Source: an uncultured Candidatus Saccharibacteria bacterium (lineage in GTDB: Bacteria; Patescibacteriota; UBA1384; JAGVHQ01). From it: DNA of 64,000 nucleotides. Each line of letters opens with the position of its first letter. Positions within the stretch are counted from its first letter, which is position 1. The notes beneath the pieces were generated by a model. That model did not search any database, was not told the DNA's origin, and was given only the letters and a program-made list of their open reading frames with translations. The stretch spans positions 4,253-68,252 of the forward strand of contig CAYIGD010000002.1 in the NCBI GenBank assembly GCA_964362865.1, written 5' to 3'. Shown in pieces: positions 38-63,153 of this stretch. A program made the position numbers and the translations under genes.

Positions 38-2026
38 ATGGTACATGCGCGCCTCTACTTTATCGCAGTGTGCATCCTTGCCGTACTGGCGTTATTTGCC
101 TATCTGATATTGTGGCGCCCGATAATTTTCACCAGCAACGTGATTATTGACGGGGACTACTCCGTTGGCCGCCGGGCAGTTGTGATGAAAGGCGGGGCAA
201 CGCTGACAGTTAAAGGCAGCTTGACGGTGAATGGGTACCTTGGTTGCAAAGACGGGGGATTAGAGGTAACCGTTGTCGGCGATTTTGTGCTCAACGATAC
301 AATCGCCTGCCAACGTGTTGTATCAGATGACGCAAGTGCCATTGCTCCCCAAGGGGTGGCCCTTGTCGTCGGCGGATCAGCAGAGTTTCAAAGTAATTCA
401 GTGGTAGCAAGTAACGGCCATGTTCAAATTGTACCCACGGCTGAGGATCTTTTAACCGAACAAGAACTTGATCAAGCATTCGACGAGATCGGTGAAGATT
501 CAGGTGATGAACCTCGGATTGGGCCTCTCGGTTCACTGGGTAAGGATAGCGTACCTGACCAAGGGACGCAGACGCGCTCGAAACCGGTCAGTACATTGAA
601 TCATTTGCCAACTCAAATTCTTCCCGGAAAATCCTCGCTGATTGCACGCGTGCGAGCGCAGGGTCCGATCCAGCGGATCCTCATCGGCGGCACGTTGTAT
701 GTTGGTTCGAGGGACAAGCCGCTCCCGAAATGGATTGACGTGAAAAAACTCCCCAAGAAAGTAAAACGGGTTGTCGTGCGGGCGTATTTCCCCAATGGGG
801 ATGTCGAGTTTAGGGACAAGAGCGTGATCCTTTCACCAGATGGGCAAGACGGCCCTGATATCACAGGTGGATGCGACATCAATGTCCCTAAGCAAGAGAG
901 TGAAGCCGATAGAAAGGCACGCGACGCGATGCGCATGCGGGTGATGGCTCGCAACATTACGATTGGGGAGCTCGATTTGTATTTAGGTGATGGTGGACGG
1001 GGCGGGAACGCAACTACCGATCCAGATTGCGACCCGATCGGTAAAGCGATTGCTGGGCACGGTGGCCAATCAGGCAATTTCAAGATGAATACTGCCACTG
1101 GTGGGGCGCTCAAGATTCGAGGTCCGTTTCGAATTCATCCCGGCGTATCAGGCGCTGGCGGGGCTGCGACCGCGTACGGTAGAGATGGCAAAAACGGTGA
1201 AATCGGTGAAAACGGAAAAGCGGCCATAGCCGCCGGGGGGAATGGCGCGGATAACATCAAGGCTTTACGCGCGCGCGGCATAGCTGATTTACAAAATATT
1301 TACATTGATTCCCTCATTGCTGGTGACGGCGGAGACGGCATCGCGAGCCCGGGCGACGGCGGGGACAGTTCCAAATGTGATACGAAAGGCGGATTGCCCG
1401 GTGCGGGCGGCGCAAGCGGAGGGGCAGGTGGAACAGCGCGGCTTGATTACCCACTTCAGGTACGCGACATTCCCAGTGCGGTTGATCAAGATGGCTTGGA
1501 CGGAAATCCAATCATAGACGACGCAAACCCGGGAGCAGATGGTCCCCCCTGTGCGGGTGGGGATGGGAGAGTTCCAGATAAGACAAGCGTAACAGAGCCA
1601 ACAAAGACACCATCCAAAACCGATGGCGGATCCTCGTCAGGAAATGATGCTGTAAAAACGCCCACTCCAGCGCCGACCCCACCAACGCCGACCGTAGTCA
1701 AAGCCCTGGGCAAATTTGAGTTTCTTGATTCGCAATTCCAGCCGATAATTAATCTCCCAACCAGCTCACAGGTAGCGGTCCATATTATTGTTGCCAGTAC
1801 CGGTGGGAACCCCGATATCCGCCTCTACTTGCCGATTACGCTCGAGCTAAAGTCGGACGGCCAAGTTGTCTGGACTGGCACGATCGCCAATGACCCTGTC
1901 CTGAATTGTCGCGGCGCCGATGGCTGTAGTATGGATGGGCCAACAATCAGTGCGGCTTGGATAAAGAAACAATTGAAAGCGACCGGCAAAAACGGGGAGA
2001 TCCTCGCCACGTATTCCGAGCAGTAA
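38..2026 (+). CDS. Hypothetical membrane-anchored surface protein with beta-helix-like repeats, Gly/Asp-rich collagen-like runs, a Pro/Thr linker and a C-terminal domain
   Basis: 662 aa ORF with an N-terminal hydrophobic helix (LYFIAVCILAVLALFAYLILW). Repeats such as TVKGSLTVNGYLGCKDGGLEVTVVGDF are followed by Gly-X-Y-like runs (GKNGEIGENGKA, GDGGDGIASPGDGGDSS, GLPGAGGASGGAGGTA), a TPTPAPTPPTPT linker and a C-terminal domain of about 100 aa. I recognise no family. Confidence 0.6.
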   Translation: MVHARLYFIAVCILAVLALFAYLILWRPIIFTSNVIIDGDYSVGRRAVVMKGGATLTVKGSLTVNGYLGCKDGGLEVTVVGDFVLNDTIACQRVVSDDASAIAPQGVALVVGGSAEFQSNSVVASNGHVQIVPTAEDLLTEQELDQAFDEIGEDSGDEPRIGPLGSLGKDSVPDQGTQTRSKPVSTLNHLPTQILPGKSSLIARVRAQGPIQRILIGGTLYVGSRDKPLPKWIDVKKLPKKVKRVVVRAYFPNGDVEFRDKSVILSPDGQDGPDITGGCDINVPKQESEADRKARDAMRMRVMARNITIGELDLYLGDGGRGGNATTDPDCDPIGKAIAGHGGQSGNFKMNTATGGALKIRGPFRIHPGVSGAGGAATAYGRDGKNGEIGENGKAAIAAGGNGADNIKALRARGIADLQNIYIDSLIAGDGGDGIASPGDGGDSSKCDTKGGLPGAGGASGGAGGTARLDYPLQVRDIPSAVDQDGLDGNPIIDDANPGADGPPCAGGDGRVPDKTSVTEPTKTPSKTDGGSSSGNDAVKTPTPAPTPPTPTVVKALGKFEFLDSQFQPIINLPTSSQVAVHIIVASTGGNPDIRLYLPITLELKSDGQVVWTGTIANDPVLNCRGADGCSMDGPTISAAWIKKQLKATGKNGEILATYSEQ

Positions 2027-3059: not shown

Positions 3060-5485
3060 TGGAGCGCTATCGTCCGCAAGAAATCGAAGAAAAATGGCGT
3101 AAGACTTGGGAGCGGGAAAAGCTTTACCGAACTGCCAAAGACCCCAAGAAAAAATATTACTGTTTAGATATGTTCCCCTATCCCTCGGGAGATGGGCTGC
3201 ACGTTGGGCACTGGCGCGGGTACGTACTTTCGGACATGTGGGCGCGTTACCAAAAGATGCGCGGGTATGACGTACTGCATCCGATCGGCTTTGACGCATT
3301 TGGTTTGCCGGCCGAAAATGCGGCGATTCAACGTAAATCCCATCCGAAAAAATTTACGCAAGAAGCGATCGGGCGTATTCGTGGACAACTCAAAGAAATC
3401 GGTACGCTGTATGATTGGGAACGTGAAATTATCACGAGCGATCCCGCCTATTACAAATGGACGCAGTGGCTTTTTCTTATGCTGTATAAACAGGGCCTTG
3501 CCTACCGTAAAAAAGCGCTGGTGAATTGGTGCCCTTCAGACCAAACTGTTCTGGCCAATGAACAGGTTGTGGACGGAAAGTGCGAGCGCTGCGATACGGC
3601 CGTTGAAAAACAAGAGCGCGAGCAGTGGTTTTTCAAGATTACAAAGTATGCCCAAGAATTACTAAATGATTTAGAAAAACTGGAGTGGCCAGAACGAGTA
3701 AAGACCCTGCAGCGTAATTGGATCGGACGCTCTGAGGGCGCGTTATTGAGCTTTGCGATTGCAGATACTAAGGAAAAAATTGAAGTGTTTACTACTCGAC
3801 CGGATACGCTTTTCGGCTGCACATATCTCGTGCTAGCCCCCGAGCATCCGCTTCTTGAAAAAATTACTCTTGCTGCAAATAAACCAAGCGTTGCAGCATA
3901 TCGTAAAACGGCAAGCGCGCTTTCGGAGCTGGAGCGTGTGGCGGAAAAGCGCGAGAAAACGGGAGTTAATCTTGGAGCTTTCGCATTGCATCCCGTAACG
4001 AAAGAGAAACTTCCCATTTTTGTGGCTGATTATGTTGTGATGGGCTACGGTACGGGCGCGATTATGGCCGTGCCCGCGCACGACCTGCGTGATTTTGAGT
4101 TTGCTAAAAAATATAACCTACCGATCAAATTAATCATTGATCCAGTTGTAATGATTTTTCATTCAGGAACTGACAACCACGCTACATTATCAGGAAAAGA
4201 GAAAGAGCCATTCTATCAGGGAGAAAAATGTTATCCCCATCACGGACGAATAATAAATTCGCCATTATTTGAAGGGTATGACTCTTTGGCGAATAAACAT
4301 GAGATTATTTCTATTATCGAAGATAAAAAGATTGGAGAACGAAAAATTATTTATCGCCTGCGCGACTGGCTGATTTCACGCCAGCGCTATTGGGGCGCGC
4401 CGATCCCGATTGTCTATTGTCAAAAGTGCGGCATTCAGCCGGTTGCCGAAAAAGACCTGCCCGTTATTCTGCCGCACGACGCGGATTTTAAGCCTACCGG
4501 CGAATCCCCGCTTGCTCGGCATGCGACTTTTACGAAAACAACGTGCCCGAATTGCAACGGTACGGCGCGGCGCGAAACGGACACAATGGACACGTTTGTG
4601 GACTCCTCGTGGTATTTTTTACGCTATACCGACCCGTACAATACAACAGAAGCATTTTCTCAAGAAGAGCTTAAAAAATGGCTACCTGTAGATATGTACG
4701 TGGGCGGGATCGAGCATGCCATCCTGCACCTTCTATACGCGCGTTTTATTACGAAAGCACTTGCGGATGCTAAGCTCGTTGGGTTCCGAGAACCTTTCAC
4801 GCGCCTGTTTAATATCGGGATTGTGTATTTGCATGGGGCAAAAATGAGCAAGTCGAAGGGTAACGTGGTGAATCCCGATGAGCTCGTCGCGCACTTTGGC
4901 GCAGACACGCTGCGGGGATACGAACTATTTCTGGGTCCGGCGGATAAAGATGTGGAATGGAATCCGCGCGCGATAACGGGAATCTATCGGTTTCTTGAGC
5001 GAATATGGGAGATTAGCGGAAACGTTGGGGACCACACTGATTCGCCTGCGCGCACGAAAAAACTTATTTTTGAGGTGACGCGCGAAATCGAAGGCCTGCG
5101 GCCCAATACCGCCCTTGCGCGCCTCATGTCGATCAGTCATGACTACGCTCACAACACACCGAACAAAGCGGAATTTGCACTTTATGTGCAACTGTTGGCG
5201 CCGTTTTTCCCACATCTTGCCGAAGAGCTGTGGCATGCTCTTGGAAAATCAGATTCAATTTTTAACTCCCGCTGGCCAGAAGGAGAAGAACATCTCGATG
5301 GGCAGTTAACGATTGTGGTGCAAGTAAACGGCAAGTTGCGCGCGACGGTTGCTCTACCCCGCGACATTACACGTAAAGCATTAGAGGAGCGCACACGTGC
5401 GGGTATTGAGCGTCACATTCAGGGCAAATCGGTGAAAAAAGTAATTGTCGTAGATGGTCGTCTAGTTAATTTTGTAGTACAGTAA
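3059..5485 (+). CDS. leuS: Leucyl-tRNA synthetase
   Basis: 808 aa with the class I HVGH motif (HVGHWRGY) and KMSKS (KMSKSKGN). Collinear with bacterial LeuS, including ERKIIYRLRDWLISRQRYWGAPIP. Confidence 0.97.
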   Translation: MERYRPQEIEEKWRKTWEREKLYRTAKDPKKKYYCLDMFPYPSGDGLHVGHWRGYVLSDMWARYQKMRGYDVLHPIGFDAFGLPAENAAIQRKSHPKKFTQEAIGRIRGQLKEIGTLYDWEREIITSDPAYYKWTQWLFLMLYKQGLAYRKKALVNWCPSDQTVLANEQVVDGKCERCDTAVEKQEREQWFFKITKYAQELLNDLEKLEWPERVKTLQRNWIGRSEGALLSFAIADTKEKIEVFTTRPDTLFGCTYLVLAPEHPLLEKITLAANKPSVAAYRKTASALSELERVAEKREKTGVNLGAFALHPVTKEKLPIFVADYVVMGYGTGAIMAVPAHDLRDFEFAKKYNLPIKLIIDPVVMIFHSGTDNHATLSGKEKEPFYQGEKCYPHHGRIINSPLFEGYDSLANKHEIISIIEDKKIGERKIIYRLRDWLISRQRYWGAPIPIVYCQKCGIQPVAEKDLPVILPHDADFKPTGESPLARHATFTKTTCPNCNGTARRETDTMDTFVDSSWYFLRYTDPYNTTEAFSQEELKKWLPVDMYVGGIEHAILHLLYARFITKALADAKLVGFREPFTRLFNIGIVYLHGAKMSKSKGNVVNPDELVAHFGADTLRGYELFLGPADKDVEWNPRAITGIYRFLERIWEISGNVGDHTDSPARTKKLIFEVTREIEGLRPNTALARLMSISHDYAHNTPNKAEFALYVQLLAPFFPHLAEELWHALGKSDSIFNSRWPEGEEHLDGQLTIVVQVNGKLRATVALPRDITRKALEERTRAGIERHIQGKSVKKVIVVDGRLVNFVVQ

Positions 5486-5558
5486 ATATACTGATTCATA
5501 CCGGTTTGGATTGCATGCCTTTGTGTCCAGGCCCCAGTGAGCCAGCAAGGAGAACGCA

Positions 5559-5738
5559 ATGGCAATGCCAAAGAAGCAGATGACCCGGACGCGGTCCGGC
5601 GGTCGCCGCAGCCAAATCCGGCTGCTCGCCCCAGCTCTTACAACGTGTCCCAACTGCCGCAGCGCGATGTACCCGCACCGCGTATGCACGAGGTGTGGCA
5701 TGTACCGCGGGAGAGTTGTGCTTAAGAAACAAAAATGA
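5559..5738 (+). CDS. rpmF: 50S ribosomal protein L32
   Basis: Manual translation in a frame other than the listed 5537..5725 ORF gives MAMPKKQMTRTRSGGRRSQIRLLAPALTTCPNCRSAMYPHRVCTRCGMYRGRVVLKKQK. This has the L32 N-terminal motif and a CxxC..CxxC zinc knuckle, and an AAGGAGAA RBS precedes it. Its stop overlaps the nusB start (ATGA). Confidence 0.85.
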   Translation: MAMPKKQMTRTRSGGRRSQIRLLAPALTTCPNCRSAMYPHRVCTRCGMYRGRVVLKKQK

Positions 5739-6178
5739 ACCGGCATCTTTCGCGCATGATCCTTATGCAGTCGCTCTACGAATGGGATGTGCGACCGAGC
5801 GAAAAACTGGATGAAATAATTGAACGCAACATCGCTCAATACGACGCAGAGGTTGATTTGGATTTCATCAATTCGCTTAAGCTTGGAATCCAAAAAGATC
5901 ATGATAAAATTGATGCCCTATTGATGAAAGCCGCGCCAGAATGGCCGATTGATCAAGTAGCGGTGATTGATAAGGTTATCCTGAGGATTTCGATTTACGA
6001 GCTTTTGTTTGACAACCAAGTTCCTGCAAAGGTTGCAATCAATGAAGCCGTGGAACTGGCGAAATCATTTGGGGGGGAGAACTCATCGAAATTTGTAAAT
6101 GGTGTGCTCGGGACACTCTATCGTGAAAGTGATCGCTTCGTTGCGGAGGATGATGTTAAAGACCGAGCTACTAACTAA
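5735..6178 (+). CDS. nusB: Transcription antitermination factor NusB
   Basis: MQSLYEWDV... and KVAINEAVELAKSFGGENSSKFVNGVLG match the NusB family consensus. Confidence 0.85.
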   Translation: MNRHLSRMILMQSLYEWDVRPSEKLDEIIERNIAQYDAEVDLDFINSLKLGIQKDHDKIDALLMKAAPEWPIDQVAVIDKVILRISIYELLFDNQVPAKVAINEAVELAKSFGGENSSKFVNGVLGTLYRESDRFVAEDDVKDRATN

Positions 6179-10599: not shown

Positions 10600-11615
10600 C
10601 TGAGTACCCCAGGAAATTGCTCCATCACAAAGCGATCGGGTGTAAGAAAGGAACGGATGTCAGTAATTTTGTATTTGATCATTGCCAGCCGCTCGACACC
10701 TACACCAAATGCAAATCCCGAAATATGAGCGGGATTATAGCCGACATTTTGAAGAACTTGGGGGTGGATCATTCCTGCTCCGAGAATCTCAAGCCAACCG
10801 GTTTGTTTACAAATCGCACACCCTTCTCCTTCGCACTGAATGCAGGCAAGATCGACCTCCAGCGACGGCTGCGTAAACGGGAAATAACTCGGTCGGAATC
10901 GCAACTTTACGGAGCGCCCGAATATCGCTTCGAGCGCCGCATGGAGTGTCCACTTCAAATTCGCCACAGTTGTCCCCTGTTGCACAACAAACCCCTCCAC
11001 TTGGTGGAAAACACTCGCATGGGTCGCATCTTCTGCTTCGTAGCGATAGACCCGCCCCGGGACAATCACCCTCAGGGGTGGTTTTGACTCTGCCATCACG
11101 CGGATTTGCATGGGAGAGGTATGTGTGCGCAAGAGTGTTCCTTTTCGACGATTAATCCAAATCGTGTCGTGCGCTTCGCGGGCAGGATGTAAAGGAGGGA
11201 TATTTAATAAATCAAAATTGTACTTCGCGGTCTCAATTTCGGTGCCTTCCAGTACTTGAAAGTTTATTTTAGTAAAAAAAGAAACAATTTCGTTAATAAT
11301 TATTCCGACAGGATGGCGATGGCCGGCTTGAGATTTTTCGCCGGGAAACGTTGGGTCAAAATAGGGAGGGGCTCCCGCATCTTTTTGTGTTATGTCTGGA
11401 ATTGAATCTAGAAGAGTCTTCGCCCGAGTTTCTCGTTCGTGCAGCGCCTTCCCGAGGTTACGCCGCTCAGTTTGAGGAAGAGCCTTTAGTTGGTGATAGG
11501 CGCGGCGTAAAAGACCTTCCTTTCCTAACAGGAGCCCTCGGGCATCTTGGGAGCGTGCCCCGTGGGTGAGAACACGATCGATTTCATTCAGCAGCGCAGG
11601 GATTGACTGTGTCAT
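10596..11615 (-). CDS. pheS: Phenylalanyl-tRNA synthetase alpha subunit
   Basis: Class II motifs HPAREAHDT, FRPSYFPFTQPS and GAGMIHPQV. Confidence 0.92.
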   Translation of the reverse strand: MTQSIPALLNEIDRVLTHGARSQDARGLLLGKEGLLRRAYHQLKALPQTERRNLGKALHERETRAKTLLDSIPDITQKDAGAPPYFDPTFPGEKSQAGHRHPVGIIINEIVSFFTKINFQVLEGTEIETAKYNFDLLNIPPLHPAREAHDTIWINRRKGTLLRTHTSPMQIRVMAESKPPLRVIVPGRVYRYEAEDATHASVFHQVEGFVVQQGTTVANLKWTLHAALEAIFGRSVKLRFRPSYFPFTQPSLEVDLACIQCEGEGCAICKQTGWLEILGAGMIHPQVLQNVGYNPAHISGFAFGVGVERLAMIKYKITDIRSFLTPDRFVMEQFPGVLR

Positions 11616-11977
11616 TTTCCACCCTGAAAAAATAGTTCAACTAAAAATAAGATACTGACCGCGAGTAATGCATTCCAGACTGTTAGAATCTGTAATGTAT
11701 TAAGAACTAAGATAAATGTAATCCCGCCACCGATCAAAAGACCAGTCCGAATTGATGGGATAATCGAGCCAAGAATCATTTCCTTGTTGGATTGCGCAAC
11801 GCGCATACGATAGACGATCAGTGTTGCCCCGGAAGAAGAAATCAAAAAAAGACTCGCGAAAAAACTACCCATTAAAAGTTGATCACTGGAATTTGGCGGA
11901 AATCCGAATACAATCAAGCTGAAAATAATAAGCGAGCCGATCAGCGCGGATCGTACTGAGGAAAGGAGCTTTTTCAT
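11612..11977 (-). CDS. Hypothetical small integral membrane protein
   Basis: 121 aa with about four predicted hydrophobic helices. Overlaps pheS and rbfA by 4 nt each, which suggests translational coupling. Confidence 0.45.
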   Translation of the reverse strand: MKKLLSSVRSALIGSLIIFSLIVFGFPPNSSDQLLMGSFFASLFLISSSGATLIVYRMRVAQSNKEMILGSIIPSIRTGLLIGGGITFILVLNTLQILTVWNALLAVSILFLVELFFQGGK

Positions 11978-15975: not shown

Positions 15976-16786
15976 GCGTGGGCTCTACCTCAACTCTTCC
16001 AATTCGCCCGAGAATTCGAGCGTACGCCTCTAGTGTAGCGTTTTGAGGGCGTTTCGTCAAGATCTCAGCCCCTTTTTTGGTAACTAGTATCGTATGTTCG
16101 AAATGAGCGGCGTTTTTTCCGTCGGCCGTTCGCACTGTCCAAGCGTCCGGGTCAGTCACAACGTGCCAGTCACCCAGAGTGACCATCGGTTCGATCGCTA
16201 ATGCCATTCCCGCTGCCAGGATAGGGCCTGTTCCAATTTCTCCAAGATTCAGGATCCGCGGATCCATCTGAAGTGCGGGTCCGATCCCGTGTCCGCACAG
16301 GTCCCGCACAATCCCGAGCCGAGCTTGCGTGATTACATCTGCAATCGCGGCCTGTACGTCGCCGAGGTGAACCCCATCCCGTACCTTCGCGATTCCCGCC
16401 ATCAGAGCAGATTCGGTCACTTGGAGGAGTCGGGCGTCTTCCAAGCGAGGTTTTCCAATAATTATGGTAAGGGCGGAGTCAACAAATACACCTTTGTTCT
16501 TCAAGCCGATGTCAATTCCCAAAACATCGCCAGTGCGGATACGTTCGTTATTCGGGATGCCATGCACCAGGGCGTCATTGCGTGAAAGACAGGTTGCATA
16601 ACGGTATCCTTGATGATTAAGGAATGCGGCCTTGACCCGCGCTTGTTTTATGCGCGCGTAGGCGAACGTGTCCAAAGCGATAAGAGTTACGCCGGGTTTT
16701 GCGGCCTGTGCGGTGAGAGCAAGGATATATCCTAAAAGCGGACCAAGTTCGCGCATGGCATTTATTTGTTTTTGGGAAAGAATCAT
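15968..16786 (-). CDS. map: Methionine aminopeptidase type I
   Basis: Metal-binding residues of the pita-bread fold (D...D...H...E...E pattern) with [14 protein letters not shown] and FEHTILVT. Confidence 0.92.
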
Positions 16787-17445
16787 CGTGCCTCTTTTTT
16801 TAAAAAAGTGTTGATTTCAGTAAGCAAAGCGCGCGTGACATCTTTAATCGGCGGGGTGCCGTCTACGCTTACTAAGCGGCCTTGTACGCGATAATGGTCA
16901 ATTACCGGAAGGGTTTGACGCCGAAAAATATCAAGCCGTTTTCGAATTGACTGTTCGGTATCGTCATGGCGAACCACAAGCGTCCCCCCGCATTTTTTGC
17001 ACTGTTCGGCAAATTCTTCGGACGAAGAAGGGGCTTTGATTGTGGCAACCAACTTGCAATTCGTGCAAATACGACGGTTTTTTATGCGTTCAAGGGAAAT
17101 TTTTTCGGGTAGCGTAATATAGACCGCGAACGGCTCCGCTCCTTTATATTTCTTCAACAGGAAGTTGAAATCGTTATACTGGCGCATATCACGCGGAAAT
17201 CCGTCAAAGACTATTCCATTAGCCTGATGGGTTTTAAAGTAATCCTCCATCAACTGGAAAATGAATCCATCCGGAATAAGCTTTCCTTGCGAAAGTATCC
17301 GTTCGATTTCTGGGTCGTGATGAGTGCGGGCAAATTCCCGCAGAACGTCTCCCGTGGAAAAAACTCGATATCCAAAATGCTTGGCGAGCTCCTTAGTTTG
17401 CGTTCCCTTCCCGCTTCCTTGCGGGCCGAATAAAGCAATGTTCAT
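16783..17445 (-). CDS. adk: Adenylate kinase
   Basis: P-loop GPQGSGKGTQ and a Zn-binding LID (CTNCK...CKKCGG). Confidence 0.93.
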   Translation of the reverse strand: MNIALFGPQGSGKGTQTKELAKHFGYRVFSTGDVLREFARTHHDPEIERILSQGKLIPDGFIFQLMEDYFKTHQANGIVFDGFPRDMRQYNDFNFLLKKYKGAEPFAVYITLPEKISLERIKNRRICTNCKLVATIKAPSSSEEFAEQCKKCGGTLVVRHDDTEQSIRKRLDIFRRQTLPVIDHYRVQGRLVSVDGTPPIKDVTRALLTEINTFLKKEAR

Positions 17446-18425
17446 TGAATGTTGAGGATGTTAGTTGCCGGCCCGAGGGTTGTGTTGTTGAGGAAAAGGG
17501 TGGTGGGTGTGTCAATTTTTGCGCGACTAATATTAAGTAGGCCAGTTGGGGTTTCGTGGGCATCGGAGAAGATCCGGTCAAACTCGCCATAGTCTTTCAA
17601 AAGCTGTCCGGTTAGGGAAAATGTCTGAACGCTTGTTTTCAGATCGGTTACTTTGAAGGATACAAGCACTCGTTCGCCCGTTACCCGTAGCGCGCGTACC
17701 GGCTGTGTAAAAGTTTTTAAAACAATCGGATCAGCAGGCGTTGTGGGAACTCGCTTCAGCAGGTATTGGGAGTTGCTGGGCGCGATATAATAGACCGCAC
17801 TTGCGTCCCCCGACCACTGGGGGAAGAGAATGCCTTCCTGTTCTTGGGCAAGTATGGAGGGTCCACTGTTGCCGAGTGAGTTTTTCATAAGATCAAATGA
17901 CGCGCCCTGCGCGTTCTGATTAAATTGAACGGTAAGATATGCGCTTCGGTCGGAAGATACACTCGGTGGTTGCACAGAAGAAACCGATTCGGCAAGCACC
18001 GTTGCCTGCGCGCTCCCTGCTTTTGGAAAGAGCACTAAGTCGACAACAGCTCCCATAAGATCCGTATTTTCTCGAGCGCGAGTTGCAATGATGGAATCGG
18101 AGCTGGAATAGACCACTTCCAAATACCCGCTCCCAGGTCCACGGGTAATGATTTGGGAGTTTTTCTGTGTTAGATTATAGGCGATCACTTCGCCGGTCGG
18201 AGCCGAGAATGCGTAAATAATCTGCTCGACGGGCGTTTTCTCTGGCTCAGGACTACTGCTCGGTGAACTCTGGTTCTCTGGTGTTGGACTCGCGTTCGAT
18301 ATAATCACGCTTGAGCTTGTTTCGCTCGTCGGCTTTGTCGTATCGGCGCGTACGACCAAATACCCGAAGCTGGCCAAGGCAAGCATGAAAATCACGGTTG
18401 AGAATGTTTTTCGTGCGCGTTTCAT
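17442..18425 (-). CDS. Hypothetical secreted protein inserted between secY and adk
   Basis: 327 aa with a signal peptide or anchor (VIFMLALASFGYLVVRA) and a Ser/Thr/Pro-rich linker, then a beta-rich domain with no motif I recognise. Its stop overlaps the adk start by 4 nt, and its start abuts the secY stop. Confidence 0.55.
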   Translation of the reverse strand: MKRARKTFSTVIFMLALASFGYLVVRADTTKPTSETSSSVIISNASPTPENQSSPSSSPEPEKTPVEQIIYAFSAPTGEVIAYNLTQKNSQIITRGPGSGYLEVVYSSSDSIIATRARENTDLMGAVVDLVLFPKAGSAQATVLAESVSSVQPPSVSSDRSAYLTVQFNQNAQGASFDLMKNSLGNSGPSILAQEQEGILFPQWSGDASAVYYIAPSNSQYLLKRVPTTPADPIVLKTFTQPVRALRVTGERVLVSFKVTDLKTSVQTFSLTGQLLKDYGEFDRIFSDAHETPTGLLNISRAKIDTPTTLFLNNTTLGPATNILNIQ

Positions 18426-18426
18426 C

Positions 18427-19698
18427 TTACGAAAACGTATCGTACGTGCGCATCACGACTTGGGCCTTGAGTTGGCGGGTGGTTTCGATAATAACGGAAA
18501 CCAAAATAAGAATACTAGTCCCACCCAGCACCAGAGTCTGGACCTTCGTGAGTGACTGTACAATAAACGGCAGAACCGCAACCAGCGCGATAAATAACCC
18601 CCCCAAAGTGGTAATGCGGATTAAGCTCGTGCGCAGATACGTGGCAGTCTCGTTCCCGGGCCGGATGCCGGGGATGAACCCCCCCTGTTTTTGGAGATTT
18701 TCCGCCACCTGAGGGGGCTGGAAGACAACGAATGTATAGAAAAAAGTAAACGCAAAAACAAACACGAAATACAGGATTCCATATACGGTTTGATTTTCAA
18801 GCAATCGCGTGAGCGTGTTCGCGGCATTCGCAATCCATTCGGTTTTAGCTAGAGCAAAGAAGCGCGCGACTACGGTTGGGAAGATCAACATTGAAAGCGC
18901 AAAAATAATCGGGATTACGCCGGCGGAATTCACCTTGAGCGGAATATGGGTATTCACGCCCGCCCAACTGCGTTGCCCTCTTACTCGGCGGGCATACGTT
19001 ACCGGAATTTGGCGTTCGCCCTGCGTAATAAATACAATCGCGGCGACCGTTGCGATCCCGATTGCGGCAAACGCAACCAGGCCAAAAATTTTACCGGTAT
19101 CCACAACCGCCAATGTATTGCGTACTTGAGTTGGGAGGCCGGACACGATCCCGAGCGCGATTAACATCGAGATTCCATTGCCAATACCGTTTTCAGAAAT
19201 AATTTCTCCAAGCCACATTAAAAGCATGGTCGTGGCGGTCGTGACCGCGAGCATGGTTGCGATCTGGATTCCATCCCATTCTGGCAGGATCCCTTGCTGT
19301 CGGAATAAAAGCAATGTTCCGATCCCTTGTAAGATCGCCATCGGAACGGTTAGGAGCCGCGTGTATTGGGTGATTTTTTTGCGGCCAAACTCCCCTTCTT
19401 TCTGGAGCGCCTCGAGCGATGGGACCACGTAGGTCATCAGCTGCACGACAATCGATGCGGTAATATAGGGGCCGACTCCCATCAACATGATTGAGAAATT
19501 ACTGAGTGTCCCGCCCGAGAAGAGATCCAGTAATCCAAAAAGCTGGTTTTGGGAGAAAAATTGTGAAAGTTGGCGGATGTCCACGCCCGGCAAAGGAACG
19601 TGCGCAATAAAGCGGGTTAAAATAAGAATCCCGACCGTTATCAGGGCTTTGCGCCGCAGGTCAGGTAAGCGCCAGATTTTGACAAGGAAATTGAACAT
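18427..19698 (-). CDS. secY: Preprotein translocase subunit SecY
   Basis: 423 aa, 10-TM SecY pattern with an N-terminus of the form L...DLRRK-L-T-L-L--R and a C-terminus ending RTYDTF. Confidence 0.93.
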   Translation of the reverse strand: MFNFLVKIWRLPDLRRKALITVGILILTRFIAHVPLPGVDIRQLSQFFSQNQLFGLLDLFSGGTLSNFSIMLMGVGPYITASIVVQLMTYVVPSLEALQKEGEFGRKKITQYTRLLTVPMAILQGIGTLLLFRQQGILPEWDGIQIATMLAVTTATTMLLMWLGEIISENGIGNGISMLIALGIVSGLPTQVRNTLAVVDTGKIFGLVAFAAIGIATVAAIVFITQGERQIPVTYARRVRGQRSWAGVNTHIPLKVNSAGVIPIIFALSMLIFPTVVARFFALAKTEWIANAANTLTRLLENQTVYGILYFVFVFAFTFFYTFVVFQPPQVAENLQKQGGFIPGIRPGNETATYLRTSLIRITTLGGLFIALVAVLPFIVQSLTKVQTLVLGGTSILILVSVIIETTRQLKAQVVMRTYDTFS

Positions 19699-19708
19699 AT
19701 ATCAAGAA

Positions 19709-20335
19709 TCAATTATACCCGAACAGAGTTTCGTTTACACTGGATGCGCTCTTTCTGCCAAACTCGGGAGCACGTTCGTAGCGGGGGTGTTGCGATCTAT
19801 ACGCAGTATTGAGTGCGATAATTTCAGATAGCTCTTTACGCTGCAGCTTATTTTTTGAAAACGGCGTACTCGGGTATCCCACCGCTAATAAAACAATCAC
19901 GCGCCCGCTATGGGGTATTCCGATCAGCTCGGCGATTGGTTTTTGTTTAAATCCGGCAATTTGATTAACGATTAAACCGCGCTCAAGCGCTGCGAGTGTG
20001 AACGCCATAACAGCCGCGCCTACATCGTATAAATAAAATAAGGTGTTGCCGATACGGTCGTCAAAAGCCGGATCTGACCAGACGGCAATCATAAGCGGTG
20101 CCTCTGCCCCCCATTCGTTTCCCGGATGAAGATTTTCATGAATTTTCGTGCGCACCGGTTTATCTCGGAGTATTACAAATCGCCACGGTTGTGTGTTGTG
20201 GGATGAGGGTGCCCATTGTGCGGCTTCAAAAAGTGCTTTCATGACAGATTTCAGCGGAATTCTTGTCAAAAAAAATCGTGAGCGAACCCTTTGCTTCAAA
20301 ATTGTGGGCAGCCCCAGGCGCGCTCGCACTCGCAT
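19709..20335 (-). CDS. Nitroreductase-family protein (NAD(P)H-flavin oxidoreductase-like) inserted between rplO and secY
   Basis: RVRSRFF...PLKSVMKALFEAAQWAPSSHNTQPWRFVIL is the nitroreductase N-terminal signature (RRS-R-F ... A-SS-N-QPW-F). The ATG at 20333-20335 sits 4 nt after the rplO stop. Confidence 0.7.
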   Translation of the reverse strand: MRVRARLGLPTILKQRVRSRFFLTRIPLKSVMKALFEAAQWAPSSHNTQPWRFVILRDKPVRTKIHENLHPGNEWGAEAPLMIAVWSDPAFDDRIGNTLFYLYDVGAAVMAFTLAALERGLIVNQIAGFKQKPIAELIGIPHSGRVIVLLAVGYPSTPFSKNKLQRKELSEIIALNTAYRSQHPRYERAPEFGRKSASSVNETLFGYN

Positions 20336-20339
20336 ACGT

Positions 20340-20750
20340 TTAGACCCGCTGCGCGTGCTTTTTAGTAAGTTTGATATGCTCTCCCAGTGTGAATCCGGTG
20401 GGAAGCGGTCCGCCAATCAGCTTCACTGCACTTACGCTTGTTTTAAGCAGGCCGGCTTGGCGTAATTTTTCGAGCGTAACTTGAGTAGGCTTTAATTTTT
20501 GGGTGAGCGCTTGGATCGTCACCGCAATCGGTTTTGTGCCTTGGCGCATCTGCCGCGAGAGTGAGCCGCGTTTTTTAGGGATTCTACGGATCAGGGGGGT
20601 TTGCCCGCCTTCAAACCGCGCAGATACCCTATATCGGGCTCTTTGACCTTTGGTACCTCGTCCGGCAGTTTTACCTTGCCCGGCTGCAATCCCCCGCCCG
20701 ACCCGGACCCTATTTTTTATTTGTCTTTTTGGAAGCTCGGTTAGATTCAT
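20340..20750 (-). CDS. rplO: 50S ribosomal protein L15
   Basis: [24 protein letters not shown] matches L15. Confidence 0.9.
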
Positions 20751-21276
20751 GTTTCTCTTCTTTCTGCTTTTGATTTTTAGCTTTCACGGTAACGCGTTGC
20801 GTTGGATTTTGATATGCGATGCGGGATTTTTCAGGTCGAAACGAAAGCAGCGCCTGTTGGGTGGCCCGAATCGTATTCAATTTATTTGAAGATCCCATAC
20901 TCTTCGTAATAATGTTTTTAATCCCGGCCACTTCCGCAATCGCCCGCACCGGGCCTCCCGCGATCACCGATGTTCCTGCTCTGGCGGGTTTTAACATGAC
21001 GGTCACGCCAGAAAAGAAACCAGTTGTCGGATGTGGGATTGTACCAGCGTGAAGCGGGATTGAAAACAGACTTCGCTTTGCTTGGGTAAAGGCTTTTTTT
21101 ACGGCAGCTTGCACTTCCGCCGCCTTTGCCACGCCGATCCCGACTGAACCTTGATGGTTACCAATCACAACGACGGCACGGAAACGGATCCGTCGACCGC
21201 CTTTTACGGTGCGAGCGACACGATTGATTTCGATCACTCGCTCTTCAAACTCTGGTTTTTCGGGTGAATCTTGCAT
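20710..21276 (-). CDS. rpsE: 30S ribosomal protein S5 (with Lys-rich C-terminal tail)
   Basis: [42 protein letters not shown] matches S5. Start chosen at MQDSPEK just after the rplR stop. The tail is [24 protein letters not shown]. The 3' end overlaps rplO by about 41 nt. No rpmD (L30) lies between. Confidence 0.9.
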
Positions 21277-21283
21277 TTTACTC

Positions 21284-21607
21284 CTATATCGTAAGGCCCG
21301 TGCTACGCGCCCCGTCGCAAATTCGTTGTACGTTGCCATGGTATGCGCGTGCTCCGCGGTCGAATACAACGCGTGTAATTTTTTTGGCAAGTGCTGCTTT
21401 ACCAATCGTCTCCCCAAGCTTAGTTGCCGCTTGGGCGGCTTCGCCTTTGGCGGGACGCACCAGTTGCGCGGCTAAGACCCGACCACCGTGATCGATTACT
21501 TGTGTATAGAAACTCCGGTTTGAAATTGTGACTACAAGGCGCGGGTAGAGCGCGGATTTAGCCCGCGCACGAACTTTTTGTTTTCGTCGAATACTTGAAA
21601 AACTCAT
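21284..21607 (-). CDS. rplR: 50S ribosomal protein L18
   Basis: RKQKVRARAKSALYPRLVVTISNRSFYTQVID...RVVFDRGARAYHGNVQRICDGAR matches L18. Confidence 0.9.
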   Translation of the reverse strand: MSFSSIRRKQKVRARAKSALYPRLVVTISNRSFYTQVIDHGGRVLAAQLVRPAKGEAAQAATKLGETIGKAALAKKITRVVFDRGARAYHGNVQRICDGARSTGLTI

Positions 21608-52670: not shown

Positions 52671-53282
52671 CTACGCTTCGCGGACGATGTAGAGAACCGT
52701 CCCCCATAAAACGAGTACCGCTAGAGCGGCTCCTAAAAAGCCGGTTAGGGCGAGAAGGCCGATATTAACTTGATTGGCAGAGGTGTACACGGGGGAGGCA
52801 ATAATTTGATATGTATCCTGTTCACCTTGCGATATTTGAGCAAGGCGCTCGCTAAAGATTGTGTGGCTCGCCAGGGCTAGGCGATCAGCATCATCTTTGC
52901 TGCCAGAGCGAAAACGGACAGCTAGGTTTGCCGGGGGGCGTTTTGTAGCGCGGATTAGCTTGCCAACTTTAGCGGGCTTTACGCTCGGTAATTCAACTTG
53001 TGCCGCTCGATATACTTGCTCAACAATTCCAGGGCTTACAAACCACGCTTGAATAATGTCGGCATACTGCTGACTCGCAAGCGTAATGTAATACTGGTCA
53101 TACAGATAGTAATCGGTTTTTTGCTGCGAAAGTGCTGACGATTTACTAACCGTCCAGGTCGTTGCGGCGTCATAGGTTGTGGCAAGACGACTCGTGATGA
53201 CGAATATTAAACCTGCAACAACGATTCCCACACCAACCGCAATCGGAATTGACTTTAGAAATGATTGAAAATCCTTTTTCAT
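52671..53282 (-). CDS. Putative Wzz/CpsC-like polysaccharide chain-length determinant
   Basis: 203 aa with one TM near each terminus and a periplasmic middle. Sits between the DUF4012 gene and a glycosyltransferase. Called on topology and context only. Confidence 0.4.
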   Translation of the reverse strand: MKKDFQSFLKSIPIAVGVGIVVAGLIFVITSRLATTYDAATTWTVSKSSALSQQKTDYYLYDQYYITLASQQYADIIQAWFVSPGIVEQVYRAAQVELPSVKPAKVGKLIRATKRPPANLAVRFRSGSKDDADRLALASHTIFSERLAQISQGEQDTYQIIASPVYTSANQVNIGLLALTGFLGAALAVLVLWGTVLYIVREA

Positions 53283-61522: not shown

Positions 61523-62455
61523 ATGTCGACATTGGTTTCCGATATTGGACGGGGGATATTCGGCGGTCAAATGTCGATATTCCTGTATGTGAAAAAGGGG
61601 GGGCGGCTCACTTTTTCGGTAGTTCGCTACCTAGGATTCATCGGTGTGCACCTACCGATGCTCTATGCCCTACTCTGGGTGCTCGACCGTGGCGGGTTAG
61701 AACGCAACCTAGGGGCTGCCTGGTGGGCAATGCTGTTCACCTTTATTGGGATGCGAGTGGGGATGTCACTTGCGGAGTACTTGTTCCACCGGGACATTCT
61801 CCACGCGGCTCCCTGGCCGTGGGTCAACCGCTTTTATAGAGCGCATGAACTCCATCATGCGCTCACGCCGGCCAAGGCCTACGCCATTGAGAAAGAAGAA
61901 CAACTCGAGGCGGCCGTGTTTCCCGCCTACACGCTCCTCGCGTTTTGGGCTGTGTTCAGTTGCCTGATTGTGCCAGGGCAACTGTTAATCCCTCAGGTCC
62001 CCATCTATCTCGGCGGATATATGGCGATCGTTTCGGCGCTGGTTGACTATGAGATCATGCACGCCGCCTTCCATCGGCCCTATGCGTGGTGGCAGCGGTA
62101 CCTGGAGCATTCCCTGCCCTGGGTGCGTTGGATGGCTGACCGAGCATACAAGTACCACCTCATGCACCATGAGTGCAATACGTGCAATGAAGCCATTGCC
62201 GGATGCGGCTATTACGCGGTCTGGGACAAGTGGTTCAAAACACTCAAGATGCCAAAACACCCGCTTGTGGAGGGCACACTCGATCCGCGCGAAGATCTCG
62301 AGGCGCCGATTGCCTCGAGATTTATCCGCAGGCTTGATTGTGCGGTAGCAATTCATCAAGCGATATGGAAGTTGGAAGAAAGTACGGGACAAAAGCTAAC
62401 CCGTGAGGAAAAAAGCAAAATTGTCGCACAAAAAAGAGTTCGCTGCGCGTTGTAG
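61523..62455 (+). CDS. Fatty acid hydroxylase / sterol desaturase superfamily integral membrane protein
   Basis: Hydrophobic N-terminal half with four His boxes: HRDILH, HELHH, HAAFH and HLMHH. A strong RBS (AAGGGGTGAG) lies 6 nt upstream of the ATG. A rho-independent terminator follows immediately. Confidence 0.7.
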   Translation: MSTLVSDIGRGIFGGQMSIFLYVKKGGRLTFSVVRYLGFIGVHLPMLYALLWVLDRGGLERNLGAAWWAMLFTFIGMRVGMSLAEYLFHRDILHAAPWPWVNRFYRAHELHHALTPAKAYAIEKEEQLEAAVFPAYTLLAFWAVFSCLIVPGQLLIPQVPIYLGGYMAIVSALVDYEIMHAAFHRPYAWWQRYLEHSLPWVRWMADRAYKYHLMHHECNTCNEAIAGCGYYAVWDKWFKTLKMPKHPLVEGTLDPREDLEAPIASRFIRRLDCAVAIHQAIWKLEESTGQKLTREEKSKIVAQKRVRCAL

Positions 62456-62471
62456 TGAGAAAGGGGTGTCG

Positions 62472-62503
62472 CGGCCGGGGCAGAGTGCCCCGGCCGTTTT
62501 TTT
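62472..62503 (+). terminator. Rho-independent terminator
   Basis: CGGCCGGGG-cagagtg-CCCCGGCCG followed by TTTTTTT. It also sits 3' of the convergent ferredoxin gene and could act bidirectionally. Confidence 0.7.
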
Positions 62504-62508
62504 ATTTG

Positions 62509-62751
62509 TTACGGATAGATCTGTTTACCGCTTTTATCTTTGAGGATAATCGCGTTCACCGGGCAGGATTGAGCTGCGTCGCGAATGGTTTTGGAATCCG
62601 CTCCATTTGGGTTTTTGACAATCGCAATTCCTTCACTGTCGAGCTCAAAAACGTCGGGCGCGATCGCCACACAACTGGCAGAGCCAATGCACAGCTTTCG
62701 ATCAACCTCAACCGAGCCGATTTCTTCAGAGTTCGCGCTGGGATCTGCCAT
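62509..62751 (-). CDS. Small ferredoxin (single [3Fe-4S]/[4Fe-4S] cluster type)
   Basis: 80 aa with CIGSASCVAIAPDVFE...CPVNAI, the Cys pattern of single-cluster ferredoxins. Confidence 0.8.
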   Translation of the reverse strand: MADPSANSEEIGSVEVDRKLCIGSASCVAIAPDVFELDSEGIAIVKNPNGADSKTIRDAAQSCPVNAIILKDKSGKQIYP

Positions 62752-63153
62752 CTAATCCTCGACGTTCACTGTGCCAATCGCCGACGGATTTAAGTGGTTA
62801 TGGTATCCGAACGAACCGACCTTGTCAAAGGTAAAAGAATAGGTAGCACCCGCTTGAAGTTCATCCGATTCAAATCCGCTCAATCCCGTATGAGCGGGGT
62901 GGGGGTTAGAGGCAACCTGCACCGTGCCGCCGTTGACGGTCCAGGTAACGGTTGTTTCCCTTTTCACGATAATGGTCGCAGGGTTAAAATTGTTGGATGT
63001 CGCACTCACTTCGTTTACAAATGCGTTTGGCTCTTGTTGTTCCTCGGTAGTAACTGGCCCCTCTAAAGTAGGATTACTGCGATTTTTGGCAAAAAACCAA
63101 ATCCCGACGGCCACAACAAGCACGATCACGATCACAAGCCATATTTTAGACAC
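62752..63153 (-). CDS. Membrane-anchored cupredoxin-like domain protein (no Cys ligand)
   Basis: N-terminal TM followed by the cupredoxin-type pattern FNPATIIV...TVTWTVNGG...H...GATYSFTF...GSFGYHNHLNPSAIGTVNV. His residues are retained but the type-1 copper Cys is absent. Its stop abuts the ferredoxin start. Confidence 0.45.
   Translation of the reverse strand: MSKIWLVIVIVLVVAVGIWFFAKNRSNPTLEGPVTTEEQQEPNAFVNEVSATSNNFNPATIIVKRETTVTWTVNGGTVQVASNPHPAHTGLSGFESDELQAGATYSFTFDKVGSFGYHNHLNPSAIGTVNVED

Follow-up and report, generated by a model that had tools for sequence, protein, structure and literature searches.

Why should a gene for a nitroreductase-like protein lie between rplO and secY, inside a ribosomal protein operon? 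The question is raised by a stretch of 64,000 nucleotides (nt) from contig CAYIGD010000002.1 (hereafter the window, meaning the whole stretch that was analysed). In a canonical spc operon secY directly follows rplO, and this is not the case in the window, where an open reading frame (ORF) of 208 codons plus a TGA stop occupies positions 19709-20335 of the minus strand between the two genes. We refer to this gene and its product as NTR. Few gene orders in bacteria are as rigid as that of the ribosomal protein cluster, and the insertion provides a useful marker for one lineage of Berkelbacteria. Overall, we consider it reasonably likely that NTR is a functional nitroreductase of the flavin mononucleotide (FMN) type, that it derives from a single ancient insertion, that it is co-transcribed with the ribosomal genes, and that secY is additionally served by an internal promoter. 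The features of the junction, with the evidence for each, are as follows.

20340..20750, minus strand: rplO, encoding ribosomal protein L15 of 136 amino acids (TIGR01071, 94.8 bits versus a cut-off of 77.95, E 4e-27; ORF list)
20340-20342, minus strand: TAA stop codon of rplO (read from the sequence)
20336..20339, minus strand: spacer ACGT, 4 nt, between the rplO TAA and the NTR ATG (read from the sequence; ortholog junctions, with 2 nt)
19709..20335, minus strand: NTR, a gene of the nitroreductase superfamily, 208 codons plus TGA (PF00881; AlphaFold2 (AF2) model; Foldseek; orthologs of 64-74% identity)
20333-20335 and 19709-19711, minus strand: ATG start and TGA stop of NTR (read from the sequence)
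19820..20335, minus strand: conserved catalytic core of NTR, codons 1-172 (ratio of nonsynonymous to synonymous substitution rates, dN/dS; predicted local distance difference test scores, pLDDT; superfamily-invariant residues)
19709..19819, minus strand: variable, disordered C-terminal tail of NTR, codons 173-208 (dN/dS, pLDDT, indels, and frame changes among orthologs)
19712..19739, minus strand: block TGTAAA-16 nt-TATAAT, a candidate internal promoter of secY (invariance in five orthologs, three frames)
19699..19708, minus strand: spacer TTCTTGATAT, 10 nt, between the NTR stop and the secY ATG (read from the sequence)
18427..19698, minus strand: secY, 423 amino acids, with its ATG at 19696-19698 (PF00344, E 6e-101; TIGR00967, 383.6 bits, above its cut-off)

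A first, sequence-only reading of the window had placed NTR 4 nt after rplO and 10 nt before secY, and these coordinates and gaps are exact. The gap between rplO and NTR is 2-4 nt across all orthologs, a short spacing that is compatible with translational coupling. In the window, rplO and secY are 637 nt apart, the length of NTR plus its two spacers. Among the orthologs this distance is 636-641 nt, except for locus L005 where it is 795 nt. The 172-nt gap between NTR and secY at that locus was rejected as a scaffold artefact of merged strain variants, with a run of N and a second, slightly different NTR tail and secY start (4200-4360).

The ATG at 20335 was chosen as the start of NTR because every ortholog shares this start position and conserves the N-terminal sequence. 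A TTG start at 20416, which is given in the ORF list and lies inside rplO, was rejected on the same grounds. Also rejected was a start at Met82, which corresponds to a public gene call of 127 amino acids (P0007), as the N-terminal 81 residues hold core family motifs and are conserved in the orthologs. The contig of P0007 is 99.99% identical to the window and has the 208-codon ORF intact. This call leaves approximately 250 nt after rplO unannotated, and a call of 208 amino acids exists on another European Nucleotide Archive contig (P0315). One practical outcome of the analysis is therefore the correction of a truncated public gene call.

The assignment of NTR to the nitroreductase family, which had been proposed from a short sequence signature, is borne out by profile and structure comparisons. 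PF00881 matches the protein with 64.9 bits (gathering score 23.5; E 1.3e-17), with residues 14-154 aligned to positions 2-167 of the 167 in the profile, and the only Pfam matches are PF00881 and PF14512. The A-PSS-N-QPW signature is present and reads AQWAPSSHNTQPW. An AF2 model based on 27 homologs has a mean pLDDT of 80, with most of the core above 90 and residues 180-208 below 50. When this model was compared with the PDB by Foldseek, the best 50 of 198 matches (E <= 0.001) all belonged to the nitroreductase superfamily with a probability of 1.0, the top matches being 4dn2 from Geobacter and 4eo3 with template modelling (TM) scores of 0.69-0.73. A profile search of PDB sequences places 4eo3 first (E 4.8e-23, residues 18-156) and also matches 3e39 (E 2.7e-5). 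The model aligns over 166-172 columns with 3ge5, 8cqt, and 3koq, which have 163-176 residues (TM 0.81-0.84 by target length).

Members of the nitroreductase family are homodimers with two FMN molecules at the interface and carry out NAD(P)H-dependent catalysis (PMC8668982). The hub nitroreductase is presented, in the portion of that article which cites Akiva et al. 2017, as a minimal FMN-binding homodimer. NTR has a core of approximately 170 residues without extra insertions or E1, E2, or E3 extensions, and as modelled its scaffold of approximately 172 residues is of this minimal hub type. The residues that are invariant in the superfamily are kept (R16, P43, S44, N47, P50, W51, G120, A151, and G153), as is the near-invariant R166. 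An alignment of the 27 homologs yields a similar picture, with the invariant or nearly invariant columns R16, W41, P43, S44, N47, Q49, P50, W51, D104, G106, G153, Y154, P155, and R166 all retained. The one exception is the serine of the N-terminal R-x-S-x-R motif, which is Arg18 in NTR, and FMN binding is likely but not certain.

The models of characterised subgroups in NCBIfam give partial N-terminal matches to NTR, none of which reaches its cut-off. The scores and cut-offs are 55.1 and 150 for BluB, 51 and 152 for the RutE-type model PRK05365, 30.4 and 249.55 for the FbiB C-terminal domain, 22 and 227 for PRK11053 (oxygen-insensitive NAD(P)H nitroreductase, NfsB-type), 17 and 78.4 for SagB, and 32.7 and 199 for Acg. 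Distant relatives of NTR are fused to an AhpC/TSA peroxiredoxin (P0159 and P0166), to a 4HBT thioesterase, or to a second nitroreductase domain. Because these partners are so varied, the fusions point to no single substrate, and the nitroreductase scaffold is best described as a promiscuous redox module. NTR is a divergent yet ordinary member of the superfamily, and represents neither a new protein family nor a new mechanism. Literature searches retrieved no article on nitroreductases together with Berkelbacteria, and none that was relevant by title and abstract on nitroreductases together with the Candidate Phyla Radiation (CPR).

How widespread is the insertion? A word-indexed search of 5.8 billion proteins returned only seven close clusters (64-74% identity, plus a truncated self-match), after which identity drops to 39% or less. 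An exhaustive search of 1.84 billion cluster representatives with a hidden Markov model recovered two representatives of the same clade, and nothing further better than E 1e-30. All close homologs with a readable contig share the order rplO-NTR-secY, which is found in the window, L001/L012 (contig 790-867 kb), L003, L004, L005, L006, and L007. SecY proteins within this NTR-bearing set are 91-96% identical, and the next SecY (L008) is 74% identical. Outside the clade, the nearest homologs of NTR share 30-39% identity and adjoin genes for a major facilitator superfamily transporter or for acyl-CoA metabolism, without ribosomal neighbours.

The same junction was compared across relatives in 80 metagenome loci obtained with a broader SecY alignment, whose SecY proteins are 49-59% identical apart from two copies of known loci. 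The informative outgroup set comprises approximately 67 loci, all CPR relatives and including the L009 lineage (SecY 62%). None of these loci carries an NTR gene at the junction. At 46 loci rplO lies no more than 150 nt from secY, and at 11 others there is only rplO-sized room between rpsE and secY, with an rplO too diverged for tblastn to detect. Two loci have rplO at 151-400 nt from secY. Unrelated insertions are present at three loci (L019, L022, and L026, whose inserted ORFs have no Pfam match), and secY is detached from the ribosomal cluster at five (L009, L015, L018, L027, and L033). In other words, about 57-59 of the approximately 67 outgroup loci keep rplO adjoining secY, and about 8 do not, owing to other insertions or to a detached secY. 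The sequence-only reading had spoken of the break of a near-universal junction. The junction is indeed interrupted, and an interruption by NTR is not common among the CPR relatives and nearest NTR homologs sampled, but the junction itself is less rigid in this phylum than that wording implies, and somewhat less rigid than in the Gammaproteobacteria and Bacilli.

Because the orthologs all fall in one clade and the outgroup loci lack NTR, the insertion is confined to one narrow lineage of Berkelbacteria, and we infer that NTR came into the operon a single time, in the ancestor of this lineage. A metagenome contig from Hainich groundwater (L002) matches the window at 99.99% identity, locus L003 belongs to a metagenome-assembled genome named Candidatus Berkelbacteria bacterium DeMMO2_25, and several of the nearest SecY homologs also bear the name Berkelbacteria. 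A scan of a genome collection with SecY-derived peptide patterns, which were over-specific, returned a single locus (L003). The host lineage of the insertion is Candidatus Berkelbacteria, a CPR group, from groundwater.

Has the gene been maintained since its arrival? By pairwise Nei-Gojobori estimates between orthologs, dN/dS over the whole gene is 0.11-0.31. Taken separately, codons 1-172 have values of 0.08-0.22 and codons 173-208 values of roughly 0.3-1.35. The corresponding values are approximately 0.02 for secY, 0.04-0.08 for rplO and adk, and 0.12-0.16 for a gene downstream of secY that encodes a protein of 327 amino acids. Thus, purifying selection acts on the core of NTR but not on its tail. 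The window differs from the other orthologs by a dS of 1.2-2.3, and synonymous sites are saturated. Since the core nevertheless shows a low dN/dS, the gene must have been kept intact for a long time.

In its GC content (48.6%), its GC content at third codon positions (46.4%), and its synonymous codon usage, NTR lies within the range of the adjoining genes, which settles a comparison that the sequence-only reading had proposed. No inverted repeats flank the gene, the only direct repeats are short and of the kind expected by chance, and there are no insertion scars. No mobility gene or transposase lies beside NTR, whose neighbours are rplO and secY only. The hallmarks of a mobile or selfish element, namely repeats, mobility genes, and atypical composition, are all lacking. 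The earlier suggestion of a selfish insertion is not supported, given these results, the purifying selection on the core, and a position that is fixed across lineages with saturated synonymous sites. NTR looks like an old, fixed, and functional gene that is neither a selfish nor a recent insert.

If NTR has long separated secY from the genes upstream, how is secY expressed? A conserved block was found by aligning the 3' ends of NTR from five orthologs. The tail alignment is poorly conserved except for the sequence TGTAAAC and, 10-11 nt further on, the sequence TTCGGGTATAAT (window 19712-19723), both of which are invariant in the five orthologs. The block ends 11-13 nt before the secY ATG (13 nt in the window), and TGTAAA and TATAAT are 16 nt apart in the window and 17 nt apart in the orthologs. 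The reading frame through the block differs, being GTA AAC ... TTC GGG TAT AAT TGA in the window, GTA AAC ... ATT CGG GTA TAA in L001, and TGT AAA ... TAT TCG GGT ATA ATA AAT TCT TAG in L003. A block that is conserved although it is read in three frames must be conserved at the level of the nucleic acid, and not of the protein. Outside strongly conserved coding segments, the 12-nt run is the sole long invariant run of the region, and a run of at least 12 invariant columns in the tail has a probability of approximately 1.6e-4 under a simple independence model that takes account of how conserved the tail is as a whole. The combined TGTAAA/TATAAT pattern occurs once in the window, versus zero occurrences expected in shuffles.

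The block has the geometry of a sigma-70 promoter, with a perfect and invariant TATAAT as the -10 element and the invariant TGTAAA as a weak candidate for the -35 element. Because three orthologs translate it in three frames, we read the block as a promoter, such that secY probably has an internal promoter within the 3'-terminal part of NTR. Translation across this element would then yield the disordered tail of the protein as a by-product. A scan with promoter and terminator consensus sequences gave counts at the chance level and did not flag the block. An RNA structure at this position was considered and rejected, as it would have only four weak pairs and shows zero covariation.

Promoter-like sequences close to secY are also seen elsewhere. 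In the 70 nt upstream of secY at L009, L018, L019, L029, and L033, there is a TTGAtt-17 nt-TATAGT or TATATT sequence that ends 7 nt before the ATG. At these five loci secY lies apart from rplO or follows inserted genes, and the geometry is that of a promoter for a leaderless mRNA. Other genes in the window likewise carry -10-like boxes very near their start codons. Because -10 boxes sit so close to start codons, promoters that produce short-leader or leaderless mRNAs are apparently normal in this group.

Taken together, the observations suggest the following account. A single insertion, in the ancestor of a narrow Berkelbacteria lineage, would have brought NTR into the spc operon, and the gene would have stayed between rplO and secY. 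Because the gap to rplO is only 2-4 nt and there is no terminator, NTR most likely shares a transcript with the ribosomal genes and has its translation coupled to that of rplO. The sequence-only reading had likewise supposed expression with the ribosomal operon, which is plausible given this gap in all orthologs and promoter and terminator signals at the chance level. Transcription from the ribosomal operon would make NTR expression constitutive and linked to growth. By analogy with its family, the enzyme might reduce a small electrophile (a quinone, a nitro compound, a flavin, or O2) with NAD(P)H, which would amount to a housekeeping role in redox metabolism or detoxification in an organism with a genome of approximately 0.8-0.9 Mb. 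Meanwhile, secY is probably served both by read-through and by the internal promoter TGTAAA-16/17 nt-TATAAT, with the NTR tail arising from translation across the promoter element. In this account, the locus is a case in which an essential operon tolerates an insertion through tight coupling upstream and a new or retained promoter for secY.

Several observations weigh against parts of this account. The single origin draws on a handful of metagenome contigs, and the sister locus L008 has another architecture. TGTAAA matches the sigma-70 -35 consensus at 3 of 6 positions, and the block could instead be a translation-initiation signal or another regulatory element. No Shine-Dalgarno-like motif is seen upstream of the NTR ATG. 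Finally, in the usual N-terminal R-x-S-x-R flavin-phosphate motif, the serine is replaced by Arg18, with Ser or Thr at position 19 (QRVRSRFF versus RRWSPRAF in the family), and FMN binding is uncertain for this reason.

Other explanations must be weighed against the same evidence. NTR could be a passenger without a function of its own, neutral or in decay, which arrived by selfish or accidental insertion and is tolerated only because secY is still expressed. This would agree with the near-neutral tail and its frame shifts among orthologs, with the fragment of 127 amino acids in one public gene call, and with the unrelated ORFs inserted at the rplO-secY junction in other CPR lineages. It is largely refuted by the 172-codon core, which is intact in every ortholog and retains its low dN/dS (0.08-0.22) at dS values above 1, by the family-invariant residues that are kept, and by the lack of repeats, a transposase, or a compositional anomaly. 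We regard a passenger as very unlikely. A recent horizontal transfer into one genome is extremely unlikely, given that the insertion is common to lineages with saturated synonymous sites, and probably also to the sister whose SecY is 74% identical, and that the composition of NTR is fully ameliorated. The idea does draw on the low identity (30-39%) of the closest homologs from outside the clade, which belong to unrelated bacteria, and for this reason the ultimate origin of NTR is likely foreign.

A different possibility is raised by the sister locus L008 (1-783), where an NTR homolog (56% identity in the available part) lies directly upstream of a SecY gene whose product is 74% identical. This homolog runs in frame into a C-terminal NUDIX domain (PF00293, E 1.2e-19), and secY follows after 14 nt. 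NTR might accordingly be one half of a nitroreductase-NUDIX pair acting on FAD, NADH, or ADP-ribose-type molecules, with the NUDIX part lost or relocated in the lineage of the window. We judge this to be unlikely, as one 2.6-kb contig is the only place where the fusion is seen, the 5.8 billion proteins yielded no second example, and no NUDIX sequence was found in the window or at the other loci. Moreover, the AhpC/TSA, 4HBT, and second nitroreductase domains fused to other relatives indicate that partners are unspecific in this subfamily. Alternatively, NTR might have been recruited as a factor associated with the ribosome or the translocon, maybe without a flavin, so that its position reflects a functional partnership. 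There is little probability that this is correct: all other family invariants are retained, the tail is conserved neither in sequence nor in reading frame, and the nearest homologs, which occur in metabolic contexts, are ordinary enzymes that stand alone or are fused to redox domains. What speaks for recruitment is the strictly conserved slot between rplO and secY, the arginine in place of the motif serine, and the basic character of the C-terminal tail. Unrelated small enzymes also occur in the spc operon of other CPR bacteria, such as a DJ-1/PfpI protein encoded at L030, and this therefore favours hitch-hiking on operon expression over partnership. A more speculative proposal, which we find quite improbable, is that NTR is partnered with translation or secretion, acting for example on a ribosomal protein, a nascent chain, or SecY by flavin-dependent redox control or by chemical modification, or that it takes part in a NUDIX-linked salvage of flavins or nicotinamides. 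Selection for co-expression in stoichiometric amounts would then explain why NTR is fixed at the junction between rplO and secY, and if salvage were true, flavin and nicotinamide nucleotides would be recovered in an organism that is unable to make them. We therefore retain the account of a functional nitroreductase that entered the operon once and is expressed with it.

The genes on either side of the junction also deserve description. Downstream of secY are the following two features.

17442..18425, minus strand: gene for an N-terminally anchored, all-beta protein of 327 amino acids, between secY and adk, without a Pfam match
16783..17445, minus strand: adk, the customary gene downstream of secY (Pfam ADK, E 2.5e-31)

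Downstream of adk are, in order, map, infA, rpmJ, rpsM, rpsK, rpsD, rpoA, and rplQ (identified by Pfam families, with infA and rpmJ from ORFs). The protein of 327 amino acids begins with a hydrophobic helix, followed by a Ser/Pro-rich linker and an all-beta body, and its gene is a second non-canonical, lineage-specific resident of the operon. Its relatives are encoded directly after secY in L016, L020, L022, L042, and L075. A scan that covered L016, L020, L022, and L075 detected PD40 (TolB-like beta-propeller) repeats in the relatives from L020, L022, and L075, and none in that from L016. Because the gene is more widespread than NTR, it is probably older than the NTR insertion. An AF2 prediction from the single sequence has a pLDDT of 35 and is unusable as evidence for the fold.

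On the upstream side, rplO shares its first 41 nt (20710-20750) with the 3' end of rpsE, and this overlap is kept in the orthologs. The rpsE ORF as listed (20710-21417, minus strand) opens at an upstream TTG, and the likely start is the ATG at 21276. The rpmD gene for ribosomal protein L30 is absent between rpsE and rplO, and a missing L30 gene is typical of CPR bacteria. The remainder of the window consists of standard housekeeping genes, including rpoBC, the str, S10, spc, and alpha ribosomal clusters, adk, map, infA, and rpmJ, as well as pheST, leuS, gyrAB, infB, obg, SUF genes, and cdaA. No tRNA gene was found by ARAGORN across the entire 64 kb. A search of the whole window against Rfam at gathering thresholds gave zero matches, and hence no known ribosomal leader RNAs despite the dense ribosomal protein clusters. 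ORFs of the window without a Pfam match at E <= 0.001 include those at 38-2026 (plus strand), 52671-53282 (minus), 5462-5902 (minus), 11612-11977 (minus), and 62455-62793 (plus), the largest of which encodes 662 amino acids.

Comparison with known systems places both the enzyme and its location in perspective. Among proteins of known structure, the closest relatives of NTR include the nitroreductase domain of 4EO3, a peroxiredoxin-nitroreductase fusion from Thermotoga maritima, with which NTR shares 33% identity (TM 0.73) and the PS-x-N-x-QPW, GN-x-W, and AVGYP motifs. The nitroreductase domain of 4EO3 contains FMN (PMC8113037). Unlike 4EO3, NTR lacks an AhpC/TSA peroxiredoxin domain, has arginine in place of the motif serine, carries a unique disordered tail, and is encoded in a ribosomal operon. 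The small nitroreductases 4DN2 (Geobacter), 3GE5, 3G14, 3KOQ, 8CQT (BT_1316), and 3E39 have the same compact alpha+beta scaffold of approximately 165-190 residues and no large extensions, with TM scores of 0.75-0.84 by target length and an identity of only 22-31% to NTR. These proteins are without a defined physiological substrate, and the comparison lends no specific function to NTR.

With regard to location, insertions into the ribosomal super-operon that are on record include tusDCB, bfd-bfr, nrdHEF, and ilv-leu (Brandis 2021, PMC8046335). Signs of long-distance transfer were absent there (PMC8046335). In the Gammaproteobacteria and Bacilli the recorded insertions lie mostly between operons, with nrdHEF within rpoBC, and secY is displaced in one species (PMC8046335). 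In contrast, NTR is a single gene within the spc operon, where it separates the last ribosomal gene from secY, and it occurs in a CPR phylum. A further parallel is the DJ-1/PfpI gene (PF01965, E 8e-31) at 2637-3179 of L030, a CPR contig, which is located on the same strand between rpsE and rplO. This is one occurrence, and it involves another family, another slot, and another lineage. Nevertheless, small stress enzymes may recur in the spc operon of CPR genomes, and the two cases offer a hint that genome-reduced CPR bacteria might place small redox or stress enzymes, such as nitroreductases and DJ-1/PfpI proteins, under the control of ribosomal operons.

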